Source: Pirellulaceae bacterium
Lineage (GTDB): Bacteria > Planctomycetota > Planctomycetia > Pirellulales > Pirellulaceae
Length of the DNA stretch: 13,568 bases
Assembly (NCBI GenBank): GCA_047620805.1
Contig: JBLHLE010000060.1
Location: 1 to 13,568, forward strand
Direction: 5' to 3'
Both the position numbers and the translations under genes were made by a program. Shown piece after piece: positions 119-13,400 of this stretch. Every line of letters starts with the position of its first letter. Position 1 is the stretch's first letter. Below the pieces are notes generated by a model. That model was not told the origin of the DNA. It made no database searches and saw nothing but the letters and a program-made list of their open reading frames with translations.

Positions 119-733
119 ATGCAAACACTAGAACTATGTTTTTCGGGACCCATGCTCCCAGCAACAACCCTGTTGTTGTTGACGACGGCCTATTGGCTGG
201 TGGTAATACTGGGAGCGGCTGGTTTTGACGCTCTCGATTTCGACATCGATGCCGACGGCGTCGGCGATCTTGAAAATTCCCTGAGCTTAGGACTGATCGG
301 ACTAAGGTTTTTGAACCTCGGTCGCGTACCTTTGATGATTTGGCTAAGCATTTTCGCGCTGATTGCCTGGTTGGCAACAGCATTGACCTACACACCATCG
401 GACAACGAAACGCTGCTACACAATGCACTAATATTATTGCGAAGTGGCGGCATTGGAATCGTTGCCACGAAGATTTTGACTCAGCCTCTGGTAAAGATGT
501 TCGAGGGTCACGGACCGGTCAAAGGCCAGGACCTGATCGGAAAGTCGTGCGTGATAACGACTCACGAAGCCACGGACCGCGCGGGGCAAGCACGAGTAAA
601 ACATGAAGGTGGAGCTCCATTGCTCCTCAATGTTCGCTCTCAGGATGGAAAATTTGGTAAGGGTGACGAAGCCCAGATCAAGGACTTCGACGCAGTAAAG
701 AATGTTTACTTGGTCGGTAAATTCAACCTCTAA
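119..733 (+). CDS. NfeD-family membrane protein (short-form NfeD, YqiJ/YuaF-like), first gene of flotillin operon
   Basis: ORF 113..733; the preferred start is ATG at 119, with a GGAG Shine-Dalgarno at 108-111 about 7 nt upstream, and GTG at 113 is an alternative. The N-terminal half is hydrophobic with several predicted TM helices and an acidic DxDxD cluster (FDALDFDIDADGVGD). The C-terminal ~70 aa (GQDLIGKSCVITTHEATDRAGQARVKHEGGAPLLLNVRSQDGKFGKGDEAQIKDFDAVKNVYLV) has the pattern of the NfeD OB-fold domain. Its stop lies 10 nt before the start of a flotillin gene, which is the classic nfeD-SPFH operon arrangement (E. coli yqiJK, B. subtilis yuaF-floT). Confidence 0.72.
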   Translation: MQTLELCFSGPMLPATTLLLLTTAYWLVVILGAAGFDALDFDIDADGVGDLENSLSLGLIGLRFLNLGRVPLMIWLSIFALIAWLATALTYTPSDNETLLHNALILLRSGGIGIVATKILTQPLVKMFEGHGPVKGQDLIGKSCVITTHEATDRAGQARVKHEGGAPLLLNVRSQDGKFGKGDEAQIKDFDAVKNVYLVGKFNL

Positions 734-743
734 GGTGTAGACG

Positions 744-2825
744 ATGAACGGATATGTGATTTTTGGGTTAACTGCCGGCGGTCTTTTCATACTGCTTGTT
801 GGCATCCTTATAATGGTATCGAATTGGTATCGTAAGGTGGGTCCAGAAGAAGCGATTGTTCGCTCGGGTATGGGGGGACTCTCCATCGCCGTCGGCAGAG
901 GCTTGATGGTGTATCCAGTCGTTCACCGATACGAAATCATGGATCTCTCGATCAAGCGAATCGAAATTCGCCGACGAGGAGAAGAGGGGTTGATCTGCCA
1001 AGACAACATTCGCGCAGACATCGAAGTGGTGTTCTTCATAAAGGTCAATAATCGCCAAGAAGACATCCTTCAGGTGGCCGAATCGATCGGCTGCCAACGC
1101 GCCTCCGAGCAAAGCAAATTGATCGAACTGTTCGACGCCAAATTCTCCGAAGGCCTGAAGACCGTTGGTAAACGCTTCGACTTCGTAGAACTTTACAACG
1201 AACGCGATAAGTTCAAGGCCGGAATTGTGGATGTCATTGGCACCGACCTCAATGGCTACGTCCTCGACGACTGTGCGATCGACTTCCTCGAGCAGACACC
1301 ACTCGAAAAGTTGAATCCTCAGAACATCTTGGATGCTGAAGGCATCAAGAAGATTACAAACCTGACTTCACGTGAGCATATCCTCAGTAACGAGATCAAA
1401 CGCGAGAAGGAAAAAGTAATCACCAAACAAGATGTCGAAGCTCGCGAAGCGATTCTCGCACTGGAACGTCAGCAAGTGGAAGCCGAGCAAAAGCAACGTC
1501 GCGAAATCACGGAAATCACGGCTCGCGAACAAGCTCAAGGCTTGAAAGTCCAGGAAGAAGAGCGGCTCAAAGCAGAGACAGCTCGGATTCAAACGGAAGA
1601 GCATATTCGTGTTGCGGAAGAGAACAAAGATCGGCAGATCATCGTTGCCCAACGCAATAAAGAACGAACCGACCAGGTGGAGACGGAGCGCGTCGAGAAG
1701 GACAGGCAACTTGAAGCCACCGAACGCGAACGAGTCGTCTCGATTGCTCAAATCGAAAAAGACAAGGCTATCGAAATCGAGAAACGTAACATCCAAGAAG
1801 TGATTCGCGAACGAGTCGTAGTCGAACGAGCGGTCGTCGAAGAACAAGAACGGATTAAAGATACGGAAGAATTCGCAGCTGCCGATCGTTCTAAGCAGGT
1901 GAAGATTACCAAAGCTGAAGAAGAAGCTGAACAATCCTTGGTCAAGGAAGTGAAAGCAGCGGAAGCAGCGAAGCAATCTGCAGCCTTGCACGCCGAACAA
2001 GTCGTTATCGAAGCCGAAGCTCAACGGGCGTCGGCGGAGAAAGAAACGCAAGCGACCAAGATGTTGGCCGAAGCGAAAACTGCGGACGAAGCTGCCATCG
2101 GCCTGGCTCAAGCTCAGGTGCAAATCGCCAAAGCTGAATCCCTTGAAAAAGAAGGCGTCGCGGAAGCGAGTGTTATCCAGAAGAAAGCCGAAGCCTCGGC
2201 GAAGGGTAAAGAAGCCAACGCTGCTGCCATCGAAAAAGAAGGTACTGCGGAAGCAACTGTCCTGAGGCTGAAATACAGCAGCGAAGCTTCTGGTATCGAA
2301 GAGAAGGCCGAAGCGATGAAATTGTTCGACGGCGTTGGCCGCGAGCACGAAGAATTTAAGATTCGGCTCGAGAAGGACAAGGAAATCGAGATCGCCGGAA
2401 TCAAGGCACAACAAGAGATTGCCCAAGCCCAATCACACATCGTGGGCGAAGCTCTCAAGAGTGCTCGAATCGACATCGTCGGTGGCGAGACCGAGTTCTT
2501 CGATCGCATCGTCGACTCCATCAAGGGCGGCAAAGCGGTCGACCGTTTGGTCAACAGCAGCGGTGTATTGCTCGACGTGAAGAATACCTTCTTCAACGGC
2601 AACCCGGATTACTTCAAAGACAAAGTAAAGGGTCTGATCACCGAGTTCAACTTGAGCACGGATGACGTCAAAGACCTGTCGATCGCAGCCTTCGTGGCGA
2701 AGCTGATGGGCATGGCCAGTGACGATGGAACTCGCTCTGAGCTCGGAAGACTGCTCGAGTCCGTTTCCAGTGCGGGATTGGTCGGAACGACGGTATCCGC
2801 GCTCGGCCTGGGACCGAAGAAGTAA
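744..2825 (+). CDS. Flotillin-family SPFH/band-7 protein (YqiK/FloT-type) with extended coiled-coil region
   Basis: ATG at 744 has an AGGTG Shine-Dalgarno 8 nt upstream. There is an N-terminal TM helix (VIFGLTAGGLFILLVGILIMV) followed by WYRKVGPEEAIVRSGMGG. An SPFH-domain-like region (VVFFIKV, LNPQNILDAEGIKKITNLT) matches YqiK/flotillin hallmarks as I recall them. A ~300-aa E/A/K/Q/R-rich coiled coil follows, then a conserved C-terminal flotillin tail. At 693 aa it is longer than typical bacterial flotillins (about 500-550 aa). Confidence 0.85.
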   Translation: MNGYVIFGLTAGGLFILLVGILIMVSNWYRKVGPEEAIVRSGMGGLSIAVGRGLMVYPVVHRYEIMDLSIKRIEIRRRGEEGLICQDNIRADIEVVFFIKVNNRQEDILQVAESIGCQRASEQSKLIELFDAKFSEGLKTVGKRFDFVELYNERDKFKAGIVDVIGTDLNGYVLDDCAIDFLEQTPLEKLNPQNILDAEGIKKITNLTSREHILSNEIKREKEKVITKQDVEAREAILALERQQVEAEQKQRREITEITAREQAQGLKVQEEERLKAETARIQTEEHIRVAEENKDRQIIVAQRNKERTDQVETERVEKDRQLEATERERVVSIAQIEKDKAIEIEKRNIQEVIRERVVVERAVVEEQERIKDTEEFAAADRSKQVKITKAEEEAEQSLVKEVKAAEAAKQSAALHAEQVVIEAEAQRASAEKETQATKMLAEAKTADEAAIGLAQAQVQIAKAESLEKEGVAEASVIQKKAEASAKGKEANAAAIEKEGTAEATVLRLKYSSEASGIEEKAEAMKLFDGVGREHEEFKIRLEKDKEIEIAGIKAQQEIAQAQSHIVGEALKSARIDIVGGETEFFDRIVDSIKGGKAVDRLVNSSGVLLDVKNTFFNGNPDYFKDKVKGLITEFNLSTDDVKDLSIAAFVAKLMGMASDDGTRSELGRLLESVSSAGLVGTTVSALGLGPKK

Positions 2826-2849
2826 GTCCGAGGGTAGAAGAACCAAGCT

Positions 2850-2880
2850 AGGCGACTCGATCTATCCGATCGGGTCGCCT
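2850..2880 (+). terminator. Strong stem-loop 24 nt downstream of the flotillin stop; possible attenuator, partial terminator or RNA-stabilising hairpin
   Basis: AGGCGACUCGAUC (2850-2862) pairs with GAUCGGGUCGCCU (2868-2880), giving a 13-bp stem with one U-G wobble and a 5-nt loop (UAUCC). The downstream sequence (UCGCUUGAGUCUACUUUCGCUC) is only weakly U-rich, so this is not a canonical intrinsic terminator. Confidence 0.3.
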
Positions 2881-3051
2881 TCGCTTGAGTCTACTTTCGC
2901 TCACCGCACGTAGCGTGACCGTCTGGCCTCAGCGTATCTCGCTCACGCGAATAGCCGGAATCAGTCCCACTACTTGGCACAAGTTGTCCACGCCTAAACC
3001 ACCCACTCCACAATCTTGGCAAGTGACGACGTAACCGACCTGGAAGCTCGC

Positions 3052-6000
3052 ATGTCTGATGCAGAACTAGCCAACGCAACAAAAGACAACGAACAAGTTG
3101 CCTTAGAGGGTGGTACGTACGAGATCATTCGCAACCGCCTCCTCAACCAAGGCGGCGAACTGAAGACACGCCTCGAGAAGCTAAACGCGGGTCGAAAAGA
3201 AGTCTTTGGCTCGATCAACAACGCGTTACTCGGCACCGAACGGATCACCACCGACCACAATTGCGTCCCGCGCGATATGGTCGCGATCGGCAACAAGCTG
3301 ATCTTCGGATACAATGTTCACTTCGGTCTCAAGAGCGAAATAAACGTCGGCGACGTCTTCGCCGTCTACGAATTCAAAGACAAACTGTTTCATGGCCAGT
3401 CGCTGGACATGATCAATCAGGATCAGTTCGTTCGCGATTTCGGCGAAGTCTACCGATATTACAAGAATGCCGAGTTCTCGCGATTCTTCGTCCGCAAGGG
3501 ATTCCTGTACATGGTTTTCCAAGTGGGCCGCGCGGCCAACGACATCAAGTCGCTCAAATGGCTCATCGAAGGAGATTCACTACGCTACATCGATAGCCGT
3601 AGCGACCATGAAGTGAAGCCTCCGCCGCAGTACGACTTCGAGTGGATTCGGACAACCCGAGATCAACACCGCGCCGGTGACCACCCTCATATCTCCATCG
3701 CCGACCGAGTATTTGTCGAGTGCGTTGGCGGCGACCTGACGATCAAGATCGAAAACAACACCGAATCCGGCCAAGGCATTTACGCCGAAGACGTCGACAA
3801 CAAAGACCAAACGCTGGACGACGCCGAAATCTACTACGCCATCGTCGGCAACATCATACTCTTCAAGATCCGCCCTTACCAAGAAAAGCAGTTTCGCTAT
3901 ATCGTCTTTAACGAGAAGATTCAGCGGGCGATCCGTATCGACTCCATTGAGCACTCCTGCGTCCTGCTTCCCGATGACCACGGCTTGATTTTCTCCAACG
4001 GCTACTACTTACAAGACGGCGAGTACAAGACTTTTGAGAACGAACTGACGGACATGAAATTCGAGCGACGAGTTCTCGCTCAAAACGGCGAAGACTATCT
4101 CTACGTCTTCTACAACACTATTGCTGGTGTGTACGTCCAACTGCATTACAACTTGATTCAGCAAAAAGTCGACACGCCACTGATCTGTCACGGTTCGACG
4201 TTTTTCGACGGCGGCGAAATGTTGTGTTTCAAAACACACGACGAACCGCAAAAGCACCACGCCATCCAGATTTGGCAAACGCCATACGTGGGTCAAGACT
4301 ACATCCCGCACACGAATACCGACTCGTTTCTGTACAAGATCGGTAACCGCGACCTGGTCCGCGGCATGGCGGAATGCCACGAGGTCATGTCGCTGATCAA
4401 CAAGGAAGACACTTACGAGGGCCTGTACGTTGACCTCGTCCGCAAAGCGGGAGACGTGCTCGACTCGTATTTCTGGATCGGCAACCCGGAAACGCACAAC
4501 CTTGATGAGCCGCTGAAGAAAATTCGATCGACTGCAGAATCTGCGATCGAGGAGTTTGAAAAAGTTGTTCGAGTCAAGCAAAACACCGCAGGTGAAACGA
4601 AGCGAGTCGAAGATCAAACTCGCGAGATGCTGGCAGCATCGCATCATCGACGCTACGACATTATCGACGACTTCGTCACGACACTCGGCGACCTCCGCGG
4701 AGCGCGAGGGGAAGTCATTTCGCTGAAAGAACGCAAGTACGTCAACCACGCGTTACTCGAATCGCTCGAGAAAGAGGTTGCCGAGCAAAGCGAAAAAGTC
4801 GCTCAGAGATGCGTCCAATTCCTGCTCGACCCCAAAGCGCTCGGACCGTATCAAAAACGAGTTAACGAACATGTCGAGTTAATTCCACCGCTCCGAAAGG
4901 TGACGGCGGCCAAAGAACTGGAAGGGAAAATCTCCGACAGCGCCGCTGAACTTGAGATGTTGATCGACATCGTCAGCAATCTCAAGATCGACGACGCCAC
5001 CCACCGCACAACCATTATTGACAACATCTCGGTCATCTTCTCAACGATCAATCAGGCGCGAGCCGCGATCAAGACGAAGAAGAAGGATCTGATGTCGGTC
5101 GAAGGCGTCGCCGAATTCAATTCGCAAATGAAGCTGTTGAATCAAGGCGTCGTCAACTACTTAGACATCTGTGACAGTCCCGAGAAATGCGAAGAATTTC
5201 TTACCAAGGTCATGATTCAGCTCGAAGAGCTGGAAGGCCGCTTCGCAGAGTTTGACGAGTTCGTCATTCAACTGACGGACAAACGCGAAGAGATTTACAA
5301 CGCCTTTGAGACTCGAAAACTTTCGCTAATTGAAGCTCGAAATAGACGAGCGAGCTCGTTGATGTCCGCCGCCGAGCGGATTCTCAAGGGAATTAAATCT
5401 CGCGCCGATGGCATGGAGTCGGTCAACGACATCAATTCCTATTTTGCTGCGGACTTGATGATCGAGAAGATCCGCGACATTACGGGTCAATTGACGAAGT
5501 TAGACGACAACGTCAAAGTCGACGACATCCAAAGTCGCTTGAAGACGATCAAAGAAGACGCTGTACGCCAACTCAAGGACCGCCAAGACCTATTCGTCGG
5601 TGGCGCGAATATTATTCAGCTGGGGCAACATCGCTTCTCGGTCAACGTACAGCAGCTCGACCTCACGACGGTCCTCCGCGACGGCGAAATGCAGTTCCAT
5701 TTAACTGGCACTAATTTCTTCGAGAACATCGAAGACGAACTGTTGCTGTCGACCCGCCAGGTGTGGGACCAAGAAGTCATCTCGGAAACTCCGCAAGTCT
5801 ACCGCGGTGAATACTTAGCCTATCGCATCCACGAAGAGCTGGCGGGAAACACCGCCCCGTCGCTGCAAGACTTAGCCAACTTCAGCGACGAAGAGTTGTC
5901 CGCGTTCGTGCAAAGTTTTATGGGTCCACGTTACACCGAGGCCTACGTCAAGGGCGTCCACGATCAAGACGGAGCCAAGATCCTTCGTTGTCTGCTGGAA

Positions 6001-8580
6001 ATGAAATTCAGTATCGGCCTGTTGCGTTACCATTCAATCGCGCGATCGTTGGCTCGAGCCTATTGGAATAACTTCTGCGGCGGTGAACAGAAGGAACTGA
6101 TGTCGGCGAAGCTGCGAGGGTTCGGCACGATAAGTCAATTGTTCCCCGACTCGTCCGCGCAAATGGAATACGTCAAGCAGCTTCGCGGCATGATGAAAGA
6201 CTTCATCAACTGGTCCGGACTCTACGACGCCGAGTGGGTGCCGCCAGCTGCAGAGTATCTGTTCTACGAATTATCGGGGGGCGCGGGCTTTGCAACCAGC
6301 CGGATCGCGACCGACCTCTTCGACGAATTCCACACATTCCTACGCAGCAACACTTATGAAGAAAAATTCTCGCAAACAATGAAAGATGTCGCCGAAGATT
6401 CAGTGAGCAGCGTCCAATTGGCGCGAGATTGGATGTCGGCTTTCGTGGCGAACCGCCCCGACGCCAACGAAACTCAGGACTACATTGACGAAGCCGCCGT
6501 GTTATTGGTAGACGGAAAAGTGAATCGCGAACTGGTCGTCGATGGCCAAGTGCGACGCCAGCTGGATAGCATGATCGGTGCTCATGGAGTCATTCAGCAA
6601 CACAAGTATCACGTCAATTTCAACCAGTTCTTTGAAAAGCTGAATAAGTACGAACGAGAAATCGTGCCGCTATATCGGACATACATTGAACGCAAAAAGG
6701 AGATCGTCGACCATCAGCGCGAAGGCATGAAGCTCGACGAATTCAAACCTCGCGTGCTGACCTCGTTTGTCCGCAACAAGTTGATCGACGAAGTTTACCT
6801 GCCCATTATTGGCGACAATCTTGCCAAGCAAATCGGCGTGATAGGCGAAGGCAAACGCACCGACCTGATGGGATTACTGCTGCTGTTGTCGCCTCCCGGT
6901 TACGGTAAAACGACGTTAATGGAGTACATCGCCAACAGGCTTGGCGTGATCTTCATGAAGATCAATGGTCCGGCGATCGGCCATAACGTCACCTCCTTAG
7001 ACCCCAACGAAGCGCCCAACGCGGGCGCTCGCGAAGAGGTCGAGAAACTGAACTTGTCGCTGGAAATGGGCGACAATGTGATGATCTATCTCGACGATAT
7101 CCAACACTGCAATCCCGAGTTCTTACAGAAGTTCATCTCGCTTTGCGACGGGCAGCGAAAGATCGAAGGCGTCTACAAGGGTCGCACGCGAACCTACGAT
7201 CTACGCGGTCGCAAGGTGATCGTCGTCATGGCGGGCAACCCCTATACCGAAAGCGGCGAAAAGTTCCAGATCCCCGACATGCTCGCTAACCGGGCAGACG
7301 TATACAACTTGGGCGAGATCATCGGCGAAACCGCTCGAGCGTTCGAGATGAGTTACTTGGAAAACTGCCTGACTTCAAGCGCCGCACTGAATCGACTTGC
7401 GAGTCGCAGTCAGCAAGACGTCTACTCGATTATCAAAATCGCTGAGACCGACGACCGCGAGGGAATCGAGCTGGAAGGTTCGTACTCGTTGGAAGATGTT
7501 AGCGAAATGGTAACAGTGATGAAGAAACTGATGTACGTTCGGGATATCATCTTGAAGGTAAATCGCGAGTACATTCGTTCTGCCGCCCAATCCGACGACT
7601 ATCGAACCGAGCCACCGTTCAAACTGCAAGGTTCATACCGAAACATGAACCGTATCGCAGAGAAAGTCGTTCCAATCATGAACGACGAAGAGCTGCGCAC
7701 GCTCATCTTGTCGAACTACGAGAACGATTCTCAAACTCTGACGTCCGACAACGAAGCCAACATGCTGAAATTCAAAGAGCTAATGGAAATCCTCAACGAA
7801 GAGGAAGCTCTACGATGGGCCTCGATCAAACGAACATTCTCTCAGAATTTGAAAATGAGAGGCATCGATGCGGATGACTCGACCGGCCAAGTTATCTTAC
7901 AACTGCGCGAGTTCAACGACGGGCTCGAATCGATCCGACACGCGTTGAGCGATGGGGTGGCGAAAATCGCCTTTAATCGCCGCGAGCCAGAAGTGAAGCA
8001 GGCAGATCCAAGTCCACAGTTAGAAGAGCTAGTCGCCAACATCGGCAGTTTGCGAGATGGGCTGCACGGCATTCGAGAAGCGTTATCCGGCGGTATTTCG
8101 GAAGAGGCTTTCAAAGATCTTGCGGCTCAACTAAAAGAAATCGCTACGATTGCGCCAGCCCCAGCACTGCCTACAGCGAGCGACGGGCCTGTCGAAGCGC
8201 AGCTGGTGAACCCCGGCGGCGGACTCGACGACTTAACGCCACTCGCATCATCTAGTGCACCGTCGGCCAAAGAGTTAGACAAACTCATTGAAAGAAAGAT
8301 CACCGTACAGCACAAAGTTCCCCGCACGATCCTCAATGTTCTCAAGTCGCAATTTGAGCTGATGCACAACTGGATGGTGCCCATCTTCCACGCTCAGAAA
8401 GAGCAAGGTAAAGACTTCGGCAAATTGCAAAACTCGATGAACCTATGCTTAGACAACTACGAGTCGCTATTAAAAGAGCTCGAGTCCGCTGGCATTCGCA
8501 AGATCCCCAAGAAAAAGCGGGGGGACAAAACGGCGGACGAAACGCCCGAAACGACTCATTTCATCGACGACAATGAGTAG
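3052..8580 (+). CDS. Giant (~1840 aa) uncharacterised protein with a single MoxR/AAA_5-like AAA+ ATPase module; third gene of the NfeD-flotillin cluster
   Basis: A continuous ORF of 1854 codons begins at TTG 3016. The preferred start is ATG 3052, with a GGAAG Shine-Dalgarno 6 nt upstream. Walker A is LLLLLSPPGYGKTTL (nt 6898-6924). Walker B with the flanking AAA_3/AAA_5-type motif is MIYLDDIQHCNPEFLQKFISLCD, comparable to hhDEINRAxPxvQsaLLe. Sensor-1 is VIVVMAGNP. The first ~1250 aa have no motif I can assign; they are mixed beta-rich and coiled-coil. The C-terminal ~450 aa contain a duplicated ~40-aa motif, a Pro/Ala-rich linker and a basic tail (KIPKKKRGDK). Codon usage is uniform with the flanking genes. 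Confidence 0.8.
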   Translation: MSDAELANATKDNEQVALEGGTYEIIRNRLLNQGGELKTRLEKLNAGRKEVFGSINNALLGTERITTDHNCVPRDMVAIGNKLIFGYNVHFGLKSEINVGDVFAVYEFKDKLFHGQSLDMINQDQFVRDFGEVYRYYKNAEFSRFFVRKGFLYMVFQVGRAANDIKSLKWLIEGDSLRYIDSRSDHEVKPPPQYDFEWIRTTRDQHRAGDHPHISIADRVFVECVGGDLTIKIENNTESGQGIYAEDVDNKDQTLDDAEIYYAIVGNIILFKIRPYQEKQFRYIVFNEKIQRAIRIDSIEHSCVLLPDDHGLIFSNGYYLQDGEYKTFENELTDMKFERRVLAQNGEDYLYVFYNTIAGVYVQLHYNLIQQKVDTPLICHGSTFFDGGEMLCFKTHDEPQKHHAIQIWQTPYVGQDYIPHTNTDSFLYKIGNRDLVRGMAECHEVMSLINKEDTYEGLYVDLVRKAGDVLDSYFWIGNPETHNLDEPLKKIRSTAESAIEEFEKVVRVKQNTAGETKRVEDQTREMLAASHHRRYDIIDDFVTTLGDLRGARGEVISLKERKYVNHALLESLEKEVAEQSEKVAQRCVQFLLDPKALGPYQKRVNEHVELIPPLRKVTAAKELEGKISDSAAELEMLIDIVSNLKIDDATHRTTIIDNISVIFSTINQARAAIKTKKKDLMSVEGVAEFNSQMKLLNQGVVNYLDICDSPEKCEEFLTKVMIQLEELEGRFAEFDEFVIQLTDKREEIYNAFETRKLSLIEARNRRASSLMSAAERILKGIKSRADGMESVNDINSYFAADLMIEKIRDITGQLTKLDDNVKVDDIQSRLKTIKEDAVRQLKDRQDLFVGGANIIQLGQHRFSVNVQQLDLTTVLRDGEMQFHLTGTNFFENIEDELLLSTRQVWDQEVISETPQVYRGEYLAYRIHEELAGNTAPSLQDLANFSDEELSAFVQSFMGPRYTEAYVKGVHDQDGAKILRCLLEMKFSIGLLRYHSIARSLARAYWNNFCGGEQKELMSAKLRGFGTISQLFPDSSAQMEYVKQLRGMMKDFINWSGLYDAEWVPPAAEYLFYELSGGAGFATSRIATDLFDEFHTFLRSNTYEEKFSQTMKDVAEDSVSSVQLARDWMSAFVANRPDANETQDYIDEAAVLLVDGKVNRELVVDGQVRRQLDSMIGAHGVIQQHKYHVNFNQFFEKLNKYEREIVPLYRTYIERKKEIVDHQREGMKLDEFKPRVLTSFVRNKLIDEVYLPIIGDNLAKQIGVIGEGKRTDLMGLLLLLSPPGYGKTTLMEYIANRLGVIFMKINGPAIGHNVTSLDPNEAPNAGAREEVEKLNLSLEMGDNVMIYLDDIQHCNPEFLQKFISLCDGQRKIEGVYKGRTRTYDLRGRKVIVVMAGNPYTESGEKFQIPDMLANRADVYNLGEIIGETARAFEMSYLENCLTSSAALNRLASRSQQDVYSIIKIAETDDREGIELEGSYSLEDVSEMVTVMKKLMYVRDIILKVNREYIRSAAQSDDYRTEPPFKLQGSYRNMNRIAEKVVPIMNDEELRTLILSNYENDSQTLTSDNEANMLKFKELMEILNEEEALRWASIKRTFSQNLKMRGIDADDSTGQVILQLREFNDGLESIRHALSDGVAKIAFNRREPEVKQADPSPQLEELVANIGSLRDGLHGIREALSGGISEEAFKDLAAQLKEIATIAPAPALPTASDGPVEAQLVNPGGGLDDLTPLASSSAPSAKELDKLIERKITVQHKVPRTILNVLKSQFELMHNWMVPIFHAQKEQGKDFGKLQNSMNLCLDNYESLLKELESAGIRKIPKKKRGDKTADETPETTHFIDDNE
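6840..7330 (+). other. AAA+ (MoxR/AAA_5-like) ATPase module inside the giant ORF
   Basis: In linear order there is a P-loop GYGKTT, Walker B hhhhDD followed by IQHCNPEFLQKF, Sensor-1 asparagine in MAGNP, and then a helical lid region (ADVYNLGEIIGETARAFEMSYLEN). It is a single module, not a tandem hexamer-of-dimers arrangement. Confidence 0.7.
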
Positions 8581-8596
8581 AGTCACCTTCCCAGCG

Positions 8597-8675
8597 CAGA
8601 GCGTCCGGGAAGATCAGAGCGTCCGGGAAGATCAGAGCGTCCGGGAAGATCAGAGCGTCCGGGAAGATCAGAGCG
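8597..8675. repeat. Tandem direct repeat, 18-bp unit CAGAGCGTCCGGGAAGAT x4 perfect copies plus a partial 5th
   Basis: Read directly from the sequence: perfect copies at 8597-8614, 8615-8632, 8633-8650 and 8651-8668, then CAGAGCG and divergence. It starts 17 nt after the stop codon of the giant ORF, in the convergent intergenic region 8581-8710. Confidence 0.92.
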
Positions 8676-8704
8676 GTCAGAGCTGCCTACACATTGCTCT
8701 GACC
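8675..8704. terminator. Intergenic stem-loop (9-bp perfect stem, 12-nt loop) between convergent genes; candidate bidirectional terminator-like structure
   Basis: GGTCAGAGC (8675-8683) and GCTCTGACC (8696-8704) are perfect reverse complements. The structure sits 7 nt from the stop of the minus-strand SGNH gene (8711-8713) and about 95 nt after the giant-ORF stop. No canonical U-tract follows on either strand. Confidence 0.3.
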
Positions 8705-8710
8705 TTGATG

Positions 8711-10901
8711 CTACTGAGTGAGCGTTTCGGCTAGTTCGTTGGCAATCAGATCCGCGATTAGTTCATTTCCTTTTTGGTTCGGATGAACGCCATCGCCAGT
8801 CAAAATACCCATGTTCGCGAATTCGATGTCGCCGTTAACTCTCAATTCAACATTGTGATTCTTCAAATAGTTAACGAACGCAGTGCGAAGATCGACGAGT
8901 GGTACGCTCTGTTGGCGAGCCACCTTGCGGGTTAACTCGGCGAACTGATCGCAGAGTTTGTCTTTTTCGTTGGAGCCATCGGGGCGCTCTCTGTAAACGG
9001 CGAGCGTCGTGAAGATTAGTTTCGTTCCGTTGGCGGCTGCAGCTTTGTGCAGGTCGACTAGTGCCTGTTCAAAGTCTTGCGGACTTGTCTTTCGCCACCA
9101 AACATCGTTGATACCGATGTACACCACGGCCACATCTGCCTTGTCGTTCTGGATAACCTTGGCGAACGATTCTTGTTTGCCATCCTTGTTGCCATCCTTG
9201 TTTGCCATCCTTGTTGCCATCCTTGTTGCCATCCTTGTTGCCATCCTTGTTGCCGGAGTCGATGTAGGCGGCCTTTTCGACTCCATCGCGAACTGAGAGC
9301 ACGCCGCCGCCGTTGATTCCGTGGTTGAGTAGCTTCACATCCTTGGCCGTCGTTGGCAGCGCCTTTTCAATTAGCGAAATAAATCCGTTTTGCCAAGTGA
9401 TCGAATCCCCAAAGAACGAGATTCGTTTTCCGTCGGGGATCTTCGCGGAGGTGAGTTTGGCGCGGCCTGCGATGTTAAATGAGAGCGACCGTTTCTGCTT
9501 GGCAGAATCCGACATATCGAAAGGCGAATCAAGCGGCTCGACGACATTCATTGCGGGTTTTAGATTGCCATCTTGGTCAATCGAGGCGCGATAGACTCCT
9601 GGTTTTCTGCCCTTTGGGTTGCGAAACCCAATTGTCTGCAATTGCGACGGCGTAAGACCGCCGGTGTCGCTTCCAAAACGAACGGTAGAAGCCGCCGCAT
9701 CGAAGCCGTTGATGATTAACTGCTTACTTGAGTCCCAGTTTGCGCCGCTACTGTCGTAAAAACGAATTCTACCGGCCTGTGTAACATCGATACTCGCGTC
9801 GCCATTCAGAAACAGAATGCCAAGATTTTCGCTGTGCCCTTTTAGCCGTAGTTCGACGGACTGCGACTTGGGATCGACAACGACATTTACGGCGTCGGCG
9901 ATCTGGTTGTCGTTTTCCCACTCCAACTTCGCGTGTGTCGTCAGAGTTAATTCACTGGAAATGGCATCGACCCCTGTGGGCTTTGCGAGCGACGTGACAT
10001 TCAGCCGCGGATTTCCCGAACCAATCATCCAGCCAGCCGCAAGCGAATTTGCTTGCCCACCGCCGAGTGTCGTGCCTCCGTTGGTGATGTTTATCCGCCC
10101 TGCCCCGACGATGTCTCCGTGGAGCCTCGTTGGATTCCCTCCGCCGTTATCGACCTGCAACGTCACGCCATCATCGATCTGAAGTCGTCCAGTGTGGGGA
10201 CCGTTGGATATTCCACTGGTAATTACGGAATCTTTGCTGACCGTAATCGGCTCCGTCGACGTATTGCGAATGATGAAGATCTGGCCACCGTCCAAAATGG
10301 TGGGCTGCGAGTCGGAACCAAAACTTCCAGGCGAATGAGTTAGCAGACGGCCCGAACGAATTATCAGCTTGCCAAGCAGTGTTTTCGAGCTATCCGCCGC
10401 AAAGTCGATTGTGCCCGTTTTGTGACCGTCGAAAGTGAGTGTACCGGAGCCGTGAATCTTTCCCGAGATGACGAGCGATTCACCGCCGAGATAGAAGTGA
10501 TTGTGATTGGCCAATGTCGCGTCGCCAAGAAACTCAACGTCGCAGGCAAGCGTCTGCTTGGCCTGCTCCTTAAAGCCGACGGAGTCCATCTTCTTTAACA
10601 CGACGGAGCCATCTTTTTCAATGACTAGCGGGCCGCCGCTAAGCGTGTAACGCCTCTTGTCAGTGGGGTTGAGAAGCAGGTGCGCGATCTGTTGGCGTCC
10701 CACCATCTCGATCGTGGTATCGCTACCAACGGCGGGAAGAATCGCAGAATCGCCGCTGCCCGGAATCTGTTTTGGATTCCAGTTCGCAGCATTTGCCCAC
10801 TGCTCATCGTCGGCTTTTCCAGTCCATGTTATTTCTGCAGCTTGTGTTCCGCTACAAAACAAAACGAAAACGGCGAGCGATAAGAAGAAGCGTGGCAGCA
10901 T
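8711..10901 (-). pseudogene. Secreted SGNH/GDSL-family hydrolase with N-terminal autotransporter-associated beta-strand (beta-helix) repeats, interrupted by a 1-nt frameshift in a coding tandem repeat (or a sequencing error)
   Basis: Two overlapping minus-strand ORFs (9069..10973 and 8711..9286) together encode one protein. The upstream ORF has a signal peptide from ATG 10901 (MLPRFFLSLAVFVLFCSGTQAA|AE), then ITWTGKADDEQWANAANWNP-type passenger-associated repeats, then SGNH block I (FFGDSIT) and block II (NHGINGGG). The downstream ORF supplies block III (YIGINDVWW) and block V (DGVHPN). The two frames switch inside the (NKDG)n repeat, where one repeat unit is 13 nt instead of 12 (extra T at about 9201-9203 on the plus strand). 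The total length of 2191 nt is 3n+1, consistent with a single inserted base. Confidence 0.6.
9179..9251. repeat. Coding tandem repeat, 12-bp unit GCCATCCTTGTT x6 (encodes NKDG on the minus strand), with one 13-bp variant unit causing the frameshift
   Basis: Units at 9179-9190, 9191-9203 (13 bp, extra T), 9204-9215, 9216-9227, 9228-9239 and 9240-9251. Minus-strand translation gives NKDG NKDG NKDG NKDG, then a shift to KQGWQQGWQ. The other frame gives MATRMATR, then NKDGNKDGKQESF leading into the rest of the SGNH domain. Confidence 0.9.
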
Positions 10902-11033
10902 TCGAAAACCCAACTTATGAGACCGGCCAACGTGAAATCCGACCGCGTCAGTATAGATTGGTAACGGCGACAATGCGAGTTTGGCCGCAAGTGAGGACTT
11001 GGACGCGGGAGAAAGAATCGCGGTTTTGATACG

Positions 11034-12642: not shown

Positions 12643-12987
12643 TTAACCCTCTTCATTGTCATCGTTTAACTCGGTCTTGAGTTTTTCTCCCAGCACTGTC
12701 TTTATTGTTCGGTATTCAGAGTCCTCAATGTCACCTTCCTCAAGCATTTCGTGGAAATTGGTCATCGTGTCACTAACGCTTGGCCGGTCGTCATTGATTT
12801 GATCGCGATAGCTTATCGCGATGCGGTATCCAACCGAGATCATTGCACAAAGTATAGCGATCCCAAGCACAAGTTGGGCTTCCGTAGTTTGTAGGAATTG
12901 GGAAAATGACACGGGCGTTTCGACTAGTGAGCGTTTATTCGGTTGACCACAGGAAGCGATGTCAAAAGCGAAGTGCAATCGTGACAT
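12643..12987 (-). CDS. Small membrane protein with C-terminal SHOCT-like domain (start uncertain; the longest ORF extends to 13179)
   Basis: ORF 12643..13179. An internal ATG at 12987 (MSRLHF...), preceded by a GGGAGA-like Shine-Dalgarno, gives a ~114-aa protein with one TM helix (LVLGIAILCAMISVGY) and a C-terminal LEEGDIEDSEYRTIKTVLGEKL segment that matches the SHOCT motif pattern (L..G.It.eEY...K..L). No other homology was recognised. Confidence 0.45.
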   Translation of the reverse strand: MSRLHFAFDIASCGQPNKRSLVETPVSFSQFLQTTEAQLVLGIAILCAMISVGYRIAISYRDQINDDRPSVSDTMTNFHEMLEEGDIEDSEYRTIKTVLGEKLKTELNDDNEEG

Positions 12988-13400
12988 ATTGCCTGATACA
13001 TATCTCCCGGATATTATGCAAAAAGTGCTCACTAAGTCCAGAATCCGTAATCCGTATTCCTTAACTCGTGCTGGCCGTTGGCTTTGCGTTTGGTAAGTGA
13101 ATGGAATACAAAGATCGGACACATGGGGCTTCCGCTCAGTCTGATCACGCAGACTGTCGGGATTCGCCACAGTTGACACTCTAGCAATGCCGCGCTAGGC
13201 TGATGCAGCACCGGCCTAATTTCGGCCCCTAGCGAGCGAAGTTAGCCAGATTTGGCGAACTTAATGGAGTTTGCCAGCCATGCTGGGCAACCTCACTTAA
13301 CTCACAGGCCATTTCCCTGAAGAAGATACGAAGTCCGTTTCGTATAGCGTTCATTGCTCAGATCTAGTTACGTCCCTGCCTCCCCAATGGTTCAGAGAAT

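Follow-up and report, generated by a model that had tools for sequence, protein, structure and literature searches.

A conserved three-gene module encoding a YqiJ-type membrane protein, a flotillin-like SPFH protein and a giant AAA+ ATPase in a Pirellulaceae bacterium

Analysis of a contig of a Pirellulaceae bacterium (GenBank assembly GCA_047620805.1, contig JBLHLE010000060.1; the whole stretch of 13,568 nucleotides is referred to below as the window) reveals three genes lying head to tail on the forward strand, which code for a small membrane protein of the YqiJ type, a flotillin-like SPFH protein of the YqiK type and a very large protein with a single AAA+ ATPase module, hereafter the giant. 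Linkage of these genes when searched from either end, together with an identical gene order in ten distant genomes, leads us to conclude that the module is real and represents a conserved unit. The open reading frame (ORF) list of the window places the three genes as follows:

119-733, + strand: gene 1, yqiJ-type membrane protein, 204 residues (206 from an optional GTG start at 113)
744-2825, + strand: gene 2, YqiK-type SPFH/flotillin-like protein, 693 residues
3052-8580, + strand: gene 3, giant AAA+ protein, 1842 residues (1854 from an optional start at 3016)

Alignment with orthologues favors the ATG at 119 over the GTG at 113 as the start of gene 1, which is preceded by 112-118 nt of window DNA; gene 2 begins 10 nt past gene 1. 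The giant is 100% identical to the NCBI entry 'MAG: hypothetical protein ACI9HK_000738 [Pirellulaceae bacterium]' (P0001, 1842 residues; MAG stands for metagenome-assembled genome), and the start of gene 3 was set at the ATG at 3052 in accordance with this product.

The preliminary description of this DNA had made the existence of the module depend on synteny in other genomes, and that synteny was found. A set of 80 loci seeded with the giant was drawn from GTDB species representatives, mostly Planctomycetota with Desulfobacterota, Verrucomicrobiota, Bacteroidota, Calditrichia, Hydrogenedentota, Cloacimonetes and Phycisphaerae, and the ORFs of all these loci were searched with the window proteins. 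In the 71 loci having enough upstream DNA to be informative, the flotillin gene lies upstream of the giant gene on the same strand 67 times, and yqiJ precedes the flotillin gene in every locus with room for it (51/51). Median gaps are 2 nt between yqiJ and flotillin and 137 nt between flotillin and giant. Conversely, in independent metagenome contigs seeded with the flotillin, the giant lies downstream in 69 of the 71 loci that extend at least 700 nt beyond it. The linkage between flotillin and giant is thus nearly obligate in both directions. The trio is retained as a block in twelve or more bacterial phyla. Ten distant genomes, which belong to six phyla, were found to keep the same order, namely those of Ilumatobacter coccineus, Streptomyces coerulescens, Pseudoalteromonas sp. 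KAN5, a Polyangiales MAG, Proteus mirabilis and Deinococcus grandis, plasmid pQBR103 of Pseudomonas fluorescens SBW25 and a Hymenobacter plasmid, all eight at an identity of about 30%, and those of Alteromonadaceae Bs31 and Symmachiella dynata.

The first two genes had been described as a yqiJK-type pair, and comparison with the Escherichia coli proteins agrees with this assignment. Judging from its sequence matches, the product of gene 1 is a YqiJ-type (DUF1449/NfeD-like) small inner-membrane protein, taken to have three transmembrane segments. It is recovered by BLASTP against E. coli YqiJ with E=6e-6; the YqiJ_N family (PF21001) matches the window protein weakly (E=1.7e-3, 19 bits against a Pfam cut-off of 23 bits) and is found in 19 of 22 orthologues at E<=0.01, with a best value of 5.9e-7, while the Hymenobacter orthologue carries the NCBI name 'DUF1449 family protein'. 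The OB domain of NfeD (PF01957) was not matched by the window protein and by only one of the 22 orthologues (E=7e-3). Two strongly hydrophobic segments (residues 14-39 and 66-94) are accompanied, in the orthologue alignment, by an acidic loop of DxD repeats and a conserved C-terminal soluble block, which we read, from its sequence pattern, as a putative OB-like domain. A sequence search of the PDB with this protein yielded nothing significant, and the same holds for the flotillin.

The product of gene 2 is an SPFH protein of the YqiK type; its alignment with E. coli YqiK covers 447 residues at 29% identity (E=2e-42). It begins with a hydrophobic membrane anchor (residues 1-32), continues through the SPFH domain into some 350 residues of presumed coiled coil (residues 200-550, with a fraction of E, K, R, Q and A between 0.5 and 0.72) and has a conserved C-terminal block, IDIVGGE..FFD....GKAVD. 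The isolated segment 1-252 matches Band_7 (PF01145) with E=3.4e-11 and 43.9 bits against a cut-off of 23.6 bits, whereas the full-length protein matches no Pfam family even at E<=10, which we attribute to the EA-rich coiled coil and the HMMER bias filter. Precomputed Pfam annotation is likewise empty for the Streptomyces, Pseudoalteromonas and Symmachiella orthologues, so that automated annotation systematically misses this SPFH subfamily. Since the C-terminal Flot domain of Pfam (PF15975) was not detected at E<=1 in residues 201-450, 431-693 or 531-693, the term flotillin is used here in the YqiK, or architectural, sense; YqiK itself carries the NCBI name 'flotillin family'. Orthologues from distant phyla score between 560 and 1180 bits against a hidden Markov model (HMM) of the subfamily, and the SPFH domains of giant-linked flotillins are 49-60% identical across phyla, compared with 32% to YqiK. 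A C-terminal extension of about 70 residues was considered as a docking site for the ATPase and discarded, since it is absent from the flotillins that accompany the giant in Polyangiales, Alteromonadaceae, pQBR103 and Deinococcus.

The giant belongs to the DUF3686 family. Its match to PF12458 covers the entire profile (positions 1-448 of 448) with E=1.6e-190 and 633.8 bits against a cut-off of 25 bits, and DUF7902 (PF25472) is matched with E=1e-26. The preliminary description had pointed to a database family combining DUF3686 and AAA domains and labeled as DNA repair ATPase; this assignment was correct, 'DNA repair ATPase' being the NCBI label. It had also regarded a MoxR/AAA_5-like ATPase module as the only recognizable part of the protein, and here an AAA+ module is confirmed, but DUF3686 and DUF7902 are recognizable as well. 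The giant shows the architecture of the family, namely about 1600-1900 residues with DUF3686, DUF7902 and one AAA module in the C-terminal half, and its homologues display the same set of Pfam domains and similar lengths. Two AlphaFold2 (AF2) models, of residues 1-750 (m4e3b92533ccd, mean predicted local distance difference test score, pLDDT, of 81) and of residues 751-1842 (m6374a68acab5, pLDDT 63), complement the Pfam matches in the following outline:

residues 14-52, + strand: N-terminal helix (AF2)
3223-4278, + strand (residues ~58-409): beta-propeller-like domain of about 30 beta-strands, the core of DUF3686 (AF2, Foldseek)
4327-5301, + strand (residues ~426-750): helical rod of spectrin-repeat-like three-helix bundles (AF2, pLDDT 75-93; Pfam DUF7902)
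4834-5085, + strand: DUF7902, inside the helical rod (Pfam)
5659-6726, + strand (residues ~870-1225): middle domain, mostly helical with a small beta-sheet (AF2, pLDDT 78-93)
6859-7551, + strand: single AAA+ module, followed by a helical lid (Pfam, Foldseek, motif alignment)

Screening of the predicted propeller against the PDB with Foldseek retrieves CyRPA, the WD40 domains of DCAF1 and Vps11 and the clathrin terminal domain, with probabilities of about 1.0 and E-values from 6e-6 to 4e-4, yet with TM-scores of just 0.3-0.4. No Pfam match and no known homologue were found for the middle domain; all top matches of the model of residues 751-1842 in the PDB are AAA+ proteins, none of which evidently fits this domain. 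The last 400 residues are modeled with only partial confidence and give no structural reading. The giant is a soluble protein and has no hydrophobic or transmembrane segment, while its YqiJ and flotillin partners are membrane-anchored.

An exhaustive HMMER search with the first 503 residues against 1.84 billion cluster representatives shows the family to be compact, with only 792 clusters at 50% identity (E<=1e-3), and a word-indexed search recovers at least 4845 homologues of the giant at E<=1e-10. The full-length DUF3686 members listed (those longer than about 1500 residues) span about 1540-2040 residues. The best 120 homologues are 58-89% identical over about 1800 residues. A distant branch, at 29-39% identity, includes Ilumatobacter, Streptomyces, Actinoplanes, Streptosporangium, Kitasatospora, Polyangiales, Alteromonadaceae, Pseudoalteromonas and Thermoanaerobaculia, to which plasmid records searched with tBLASTN add Hymenobacter, Deinococcus, Halomonas, Vibrio, Photobacterium, Proteus mirabilis and the megaplasmid pQBR103 of P. 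fluorescens SBW25. Two entries that sit among the planctomycete homologues, P0110 (eukprot, 'eukaryotic', 64% identical to the window protein) and P0064 (a 'Porticoccaceae' MAG with a gammaproteobacterial label, 61%), probably reflect contamination or misbinning and not the true taxa.

In the AAA+ module, whose core is modeled with moderate confidence, the following catalytic motifs are identified: a Walker A motif SPPGYGKTT (GYGKT at residues 1283-1287 in the 1842-residue numbering), a Walker B motif YLDDIQH (DD at residues 1348-1349), a sensor-1 motif AGNP with N1396, and the segment PDMLANRAD with R1414 as candidate arginine finger. All of them are invariant in 15 sequences taken across the family down to 29% identity, which points to selection for activity and argues that the giant is likely a working ATPase. 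The model further predicts a pre-sensor-1 beta-hairpin (residues 620-633 of the 751-1842 fragment) ahead of the strand 639-643. Among Pfam families the best match is PF00004 AAA (E=1e-6, 29.7 bits), followed by RuvB_N (E=2.5e-5, 24.6 bits against a cut-off of 27 bits). Besides DUF3686, the preliminary description had named AAA_5 and AAA_3 as profiles to try: AAA_5 (PF07728) is borderline, with 22.1 bits against a cut-off of 22 bits (E=1.6e-4) and both PF00004 and RuvB_N scoring higher, and AAA_3 (PF07726) gives no match in the giant. NCBIfam yields just RuvB and CDC48 matches at the level of the P-loop, far under the cut-offs, and the sequence matches in the PDB are limited to the P-loop/Walker A region of p97/CDC48/RuvB. 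Foldseek aligns the module only with generic AAA+ relatives (p97, Vps4, MCM, RuvB, NorQ, CbbQ and Lon) at E-values of about 1e-3. Pfam does not decide between the RuvB/MoxR group and the classical clade; as we read them, the motifs, together with the predicted pre-sensor-1 hairpin, resemble those of the RuvB/MoxR superclade more closely than those of the classical clade to which Vps4 belongs.

A structured hairpin had been noted between the flotillin and giant genes, and folding calculations corroborate it. The 226-nt spacer contains, right after the flotillin stop codon, this element:

2829-2899, + strand: nested RNA hairpin with a folding free energy of -42.6 kcal/mol

None of 200 shuffled sequences is as stable (z=-6.4). 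A U-tract is lacking, and the hairpin was not classed as terminator-like; scans for promoter and terminator consensus gave counts no higher than the shuffle expectation and nothing in the spacer (2826-3051). Rfam and tRNA scans of the window found nothing, the hairpin matching no Rfam family. When the 90 nt past the flotillin stop are compared with coding windows of the same locus (z<-2), a stable fold is present in 33 of 67 related loci, with a median z of -1.97. Thus, a structured element at the flotillin-giant junction is recurrent, though not universal. It could be an attenuator or an element of mRNA stability that sets the ratio of flotillin to ATPase.

Outside the planctomycete-centered set, the module occurs within longer operons, for which three layouts were read:

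Alteromonadaceae Bs31 (L085): DUF2170 (CesT/Tir-like), PspA, small ORF, yqiJ, flotillin, small ORF, giant, rhomboid, PLDc_2
pQBR103: PspA, rhomboid, DUF2491, DUF350, DUF1190, glutathionylspermidine synthase, yqiJ-like, SPFH, giant
Hymenobacter plasmid: Tir chaperone, PspA, DUF1449, flotillin, giant

Within 10 kb, none of PspA, CesT and rhomboid is encoded in any of the 80 planctomycete-centered loci. Seven Pirellulales loci carry an upstream PLDc_2 gene that is orthologous to the phospholipase D (PLD) gene of Alteromonadaceae (E of about 1e-58). In the closest relative of the window, L172 (89% identity), the module is preceded by genes for PLD, an ECF sigma factor, a 71-residue ORF and a Ser/Thr kinase, in this order (L172:2686-6774); we suspect that the small ORF codes for an anti-sigma factor. 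Sigma factor and kinase are also found upstream on the same strand in 8-9 other loci, and this arrangement suggests a lineage-specific regulation by envelope stress in a subset of Pirellulales (loci sharing the upstream set are L010, L012, L021, L023, L024, L039, L045 and L047). PspA is absent from the 7 kb upstream of the module in L172 and, within 10 kb, from the 80 related loci, so that the window most likely represents an abbreviated form of the operon, without PspA. A conserved fourth component was sought by clustering the ORFs of the 80 loci and rejected, no other gene family being present in more than 14 loci and only the lineage-specific PLD, ECF sigma and kinase genes emerging. Two loci have genes inserted inside the module, small and selfish-looking: in L035, a PD-(D/E)XK_3 gene (6254-6655) between yqiJ and flotillin and a zeta-toxin-like kinase gene (9045-9689) between flotillin and giant; in L080 (Pontibacter), a DUF3800 gene (8681-9844) between flotillin and giant.

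We hold, with moderate confidence, that the trio is one functional unit in which a membrane-stress scaffold, made of YqiJ and a flotillin cage, is served by a dedicated ATP-driven remodeler. On the cytoplasmic side of the inner membrane, YqiJ and the YqiK-type flotillin would form an SPFH scaffold that is probably a cage, with the giant as its dedicated cytoplasmic ATP-driven partner. The latter may oligomerize through its AAA+ ring, while the spectrin-like arm and the terminal beta-propeller would reach the scaffold or the proteins that it holds, and ATP hydrolysis would assemble, open, disassemble or load the scaffold upon envelope or membrane stress. We infer, in other words, a physical interaction between the partners, the cage form, an oligomeric state of the ATPase, the direction of the ATP-dependent reaction and induction by stress. 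The tight coupling of yqiJ and flotillin, followed by a hairpin-bearing spacer of some 140 nt, could provide much scaffold and little motor. In support of this proposal, the gene identities and domain architecture, the synteny in both directions across phyla and the invariant catalytic motifs are established, the giant has no transmembrane segment while its two partners are anchored, and PspA, CesT/Tir, rhomboid, PLD and ECF sigma/kinase genes have recurrently been joined to the operon. The earlier suggestion, drawn by analogy with HflK/C-FtsH, that the ATPase serves the flotillin scaffold as client or effector is consistent with these observations. A bolder version, which we put forward tentatively and consider doubtful, sees in the giant the long-missing energy-consuming partner of bacterial flotillins: a hexameric AAA+ ring with six spectrin-like arms, tipped with beta-propellers, would grip the YqiJ-YqiK cage, and ATP would open, dissolve or reload this cage in membrane damage. 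If this were true, the trio would be a self-contained membrane-repair nanomachine and a functional parallel to ESCRT-III/Vps4 and SLP2-PARL-YME1L without shared ATPase ancestry.

Several points weigh against a scaffold with its dedicated remodeler. Synteny by itself does not tell what the ATPase acts on, and adjacency is not absolute, given that the giant occurs without an adjacent flotillin in four loci (L055, L068, L070 and L078). No obvious aromatic pore-loop motif is seen in the alignment between Walker A and Walker B, which leaves a threading or unfolding mechanism unsupported; the AF2 model of the C-terminal 1092 residues is of low confidence (pLDDT 63); and the 70-residue C-terminal extension is lacking in several of the flotillins linked to the giant. 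Moreover, the 226-nt spacer with its very stable hairpin is equally compatible with independent transcription of the giant gene or with a transcript boundary. As regards the four loci themselves, their giant gene is intact and is preceded by a DUF389 gene (L055), STAND NTPase and TPR genes (L068), a Ser/Thr kinase gene (L070) or a CHASE2-adenylate cyclase gene (L078).

The main rival explanation takes a PspA/ESCRT-III-type polymer as the substrate, which the giant would recycle as Vps4 recycles ESCRT-III; flotillin and YqiJ would then merely recruit PspA and the ATPase to damaged membrane, PspA being encoded in the operon or elsewhere. Ravi et al. (PMC11237479), for whom PspA was the starting point, propose membrane dynamics of an ESCRT-like kind; in Alteromonadaceae Bs31, pQBR103 and Hymenobacter, PspA does share the operon of the module; the structural matches of the AAA+ module include Vps4; and an SPFH protein, YdjI, is reported to localize PspA to the Bacillus subtilis membrane (cited in PMC9239133 and PMC11188069). 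We nevertheless judge this explanation unlikely. PspA, CesT and rhomboid have a count of 0/80 within 10 kb, compared with 67/71 for flotillin, which identifies flotillin and not PspA as the conserved partner; no MIT-like domain was detected; and on our own reading the motifs of the giant (DDIQH; AGNP...PDMLxNR) and its predicted pre-sensor-1 hairpin appear nearer to RuvB/MoxR. The absence of PspA from most loci weakens the explanation, although PspA may be encoded elsewhere. That the module is a horizontally mobile, membrane-acting abortive-infection or anti-phage island, with the ATPase sensing or executing the response, seems improbable to us. Its location on megaplasmids and secondary replicons (pQBR103, Hymenobacter, Deinococcus and Streptomyces plasmids) would fit such a role, and so would the identity of 51-57% between the proteins of Planctomycetota and those of Bacteroidota, Desulfobacterota, Verrucomicrobiota and other phyla, which suggests horizontal transfer, the toxin-like or selfish genes inside the module in L035 (zeta toxin, PD-(D/E)XK) and L080 (DUF3800), the STAND NTPase upstream of the giant in L068 and the fact that proteins of the PLD family can be nucleases. 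However, scanning of the three proteins against PADLOC-DB v2 gave no meaningful match (just IetA and mad8, at E of about 2e-3 over the P-loop), the 58-89% identity over about 1800 residues in the 120 closest homologues is unlike that of fast-evolving defence genes, and the flanking families vary between loci, those inspected being ordinary metabolic genes and not defence islands. The accessory genes speak rather of membrane homeostasis (PspA, rhomboid, polyamine enzymes).

The propeller and rod have also to be considered for themselves, as they could make the giant an element resembling a membrane coat or cytoskeleton on flotillin platforms, which shapes vesicles or invaginations and uses its AAA+ module only for self-assembly and disassembly. 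A beta-propeller followed by a long helical rod, the clathrin terminal domain and Vps11 among the propeller matches and the abundance of the family in Planctomycetota, highest among the closest matches, all go in this direction. On the other hand, the propeller matches are generic at TM-scores of 0.3-0.4, with WD40, CyRPA and peptidase propellers equal or better, the rod consists of spectrin-like three-helix bundles and is not an alpha-solenoid, and the family is found equally in bacteria without internal membranes (Proteus, Pseudoalteromonas, Streptomyces); a coat is, in our opinion, quite improbable. Taking the database name at its word, finally, the giant would act in DNA repair, and its flotillin neighbor would be incidental or reflect membrane-tethered DNA processing. 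Both NCBI and Pfam use the names 'DNA repair ATPase' or 'ATPase involved in DNA repair' for the family, and weak RuvB_N and RuvB matches exist, but the similarity to RuvB extends over about 47 residues at the P-loop and amounts to 19-25 bits against cut-offs of 27 (RuvB_N) and 282-299 (NCBIfam RuvB). Neither Pfam and NCBIfam nor PDB searches by sequence or fold yielded a nuclease, helicase or DNA-binding domain, linkage to membrane proteins holds in about 95% of loci, and the literature search produced no paper that links the name to data. We give this explanation very little credence.

The preliminary description had placed a hairpin and a repeat array after the giant gene; the repeat is confirmed and a hairpin is present, but the region as a whole is no more stable than its shuffles. 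These elements (8597-8709) sit between the giant gene and a convergent GDSL-lipase gene, and nothing was found that ties them to the module:

8597-8675, no strand assigned: perfect tandem repeat, 18 bp x 4.4 (Tandem Repeats Finder score 158, 100% matches), unit CAGAGCGTCCGGGAAGAT
~8667-8709, no strand assigned: hairpin with a 9-bp stem (fold of 8581-8710 not significant, z=-1.2)

The GDSL-lipase gene and clpX, identified by Pfam, follow on the reverse strand and are unrelated to the module. Two overlapping ORFs (8711-10973 in total) look like a single GDSL-lipase gene split by a frameshift: the ORF at 9069-10973 (634 residues) has a hydrophobic N-terminal stretch resembling a signal peptide and the block FFGDSITWQNG, and the one at 8711-9286 (191 residues) contains the remainder of the GDSL domain. 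The split point lies inside a tandem repeat of 12/13-nt units (9172-9254) that codes for NKDG repeats and in which two 13-nt units, each with an extra T, occur among units of 12 nt; an assembly error, a pseudogene or slippage could be the cause. Downstream of clpX, the product of the reverse-strand ORF 12643-13179 (178 residues) has an under-cut-off match to SHOCT_2 (E=6e-3). SHOCT-like domains are among the domains associated with the phage shock protein (PSP) system in Ravi et al., and the match in the window is too weak to be interpreted.

Mutants in bacterial flotillins often have weak or pleiotropic phenotypes, as PMC13086221 discusses. A flotillin subfamily that is associated approximately one-to-one with a very large ATPase, whose catalytic motifs are invariant, points to a defined energy-dependent reaction. 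Such a reaction would be open to genetics, by means of Walker mutants, and to cryo-electron microscopy of a complex of the three proteins, and tractable hosts include Proteus mirabilis, P. fluorescens SBW25 with pQBR103, Streptomyces, Pseudoalteromonas, Deinococcus and the planctomycete isolate Symmachiella dynata. The label 'DNA repair ATPase' has spread widely but seems to have no support. The literature search found no paper mentioning DUF3686 or PF12458 and none with experimental work on the giant ATPase. The preliminary description had suggested that, if the giant belongs to this family and its linkage to flotillin is conserved, the system is widespread but functionally undescribed; widespread it is, and experimentally uncharacterized, but the operon has been described computationally (PMC11237479), which limits the novelty of the present work. 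The module is of value because it offers access to the function of bacterial flotillins through a system that is now well delimited and as yet untouched by experiment.

Comparison with known systems begins with the operon of Ravi et al. (2024, mSystems, PMC11237479; also a 2020 bioRxiv preprint), which was reached from the PspA side and combines CesT/Tir-PspA with further elements. The same work reports the occasional presence of phospholipase D and a wide distribution of abbreviated operons, which lack PspA, and its Table S3 gives the same gene order for the neighborhood of Dokdonia donghaensis ANH61663.1. The three types of genes and their order are those found here, the giant shares the architecture of the ATPase (N-terminal helix, beta-propeller, helical region, AAA+), and the extended forms with CesT/Tir-PspA and phospholipase D were recovered as well. 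From this matching architecture and context, the ATPase of Ravi et al. is presumably DUF3686, a term absent from the one supplementary file searched. We see no essential difference, and the window is one more instance, most likely of the abbreviated form. To this our analysis adds the quantification of synteny in both directions, the size of the family, the invariance of the catalytic motifs, the spectrin-like rod and the intergenic hairpin, as well as the rhomboid and ECF sigma/kinase extensions and named tractable hosts.

The pairs yqiJK of E. coli and yuaF-floT of B. subtilis are homologous to the first two genes and have the same order. No giant ATPase gene follows yqiK in E. coli K-12, where sibD/ibsD are found instead, and the giant-linked flotillins, with 640-720 residues compared with 553 for YqiK, form a much tighter subfamily. 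In HflK/C-FtsH, an AAA+ protease sits inside an SPFH cage, and the mitochondrial SLP2-PARL-YME1L complex brings together an SPFH scaffold, an AAA protease and a rhomboid. As in the module, an SPFH scaffold is combined in each case with an AAA+ machine, and the rhomboid of some extended operons mirrors PARL. In contrast to HflK/C-FtsH, the giant has no peptidase domain detectable by Pfam and no transmembrane segment, and its AAA+ module is not FtsH-like; relative to both systems, the topology of the module would be cytoplasmic and not periplasmic or facing the intermembrane space, if the single N-terminal anchor is placed as in YqiK. An SPFH-NfeD cage, QmcA-YbbJ, is cited in PMC13086221.

Among the MoxR ATPases (RavA, NorQ, CbbQ), NorQ and CbbQ were retrieved by Foldseek with the giant, and several of its homologues are labeled 'MoxR-like ATPase' by the Joint Genome Institute. 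The AAA+ module also resembles what we take to be the MoxR consensus, that is, Walker B with its helix, a pre-sensor-1 beta-hairpin and the pattern NP...G...(I/L)P(D/E)xxLxxR. MoxR proteins have about 300-500 residues, whereas the giant has about 1800 and includes a propeller and a rod; no VWA partner gene was seen in the inspected Pfam-annotated neighborhoods, and the 80 loci contain no conserved neighbor family beyond yqiJ and flotillin. With ESCRT-III/PspA-Vps4, the module would have in common a membrane-remodeling polymer and a dedicated AAA+ ATPase, and PspA belongs to its operon in several lineages; it differs in that PspA is absent from most of its loci, no MIT domain was detected and the ATPase appears unlike the classical clade.

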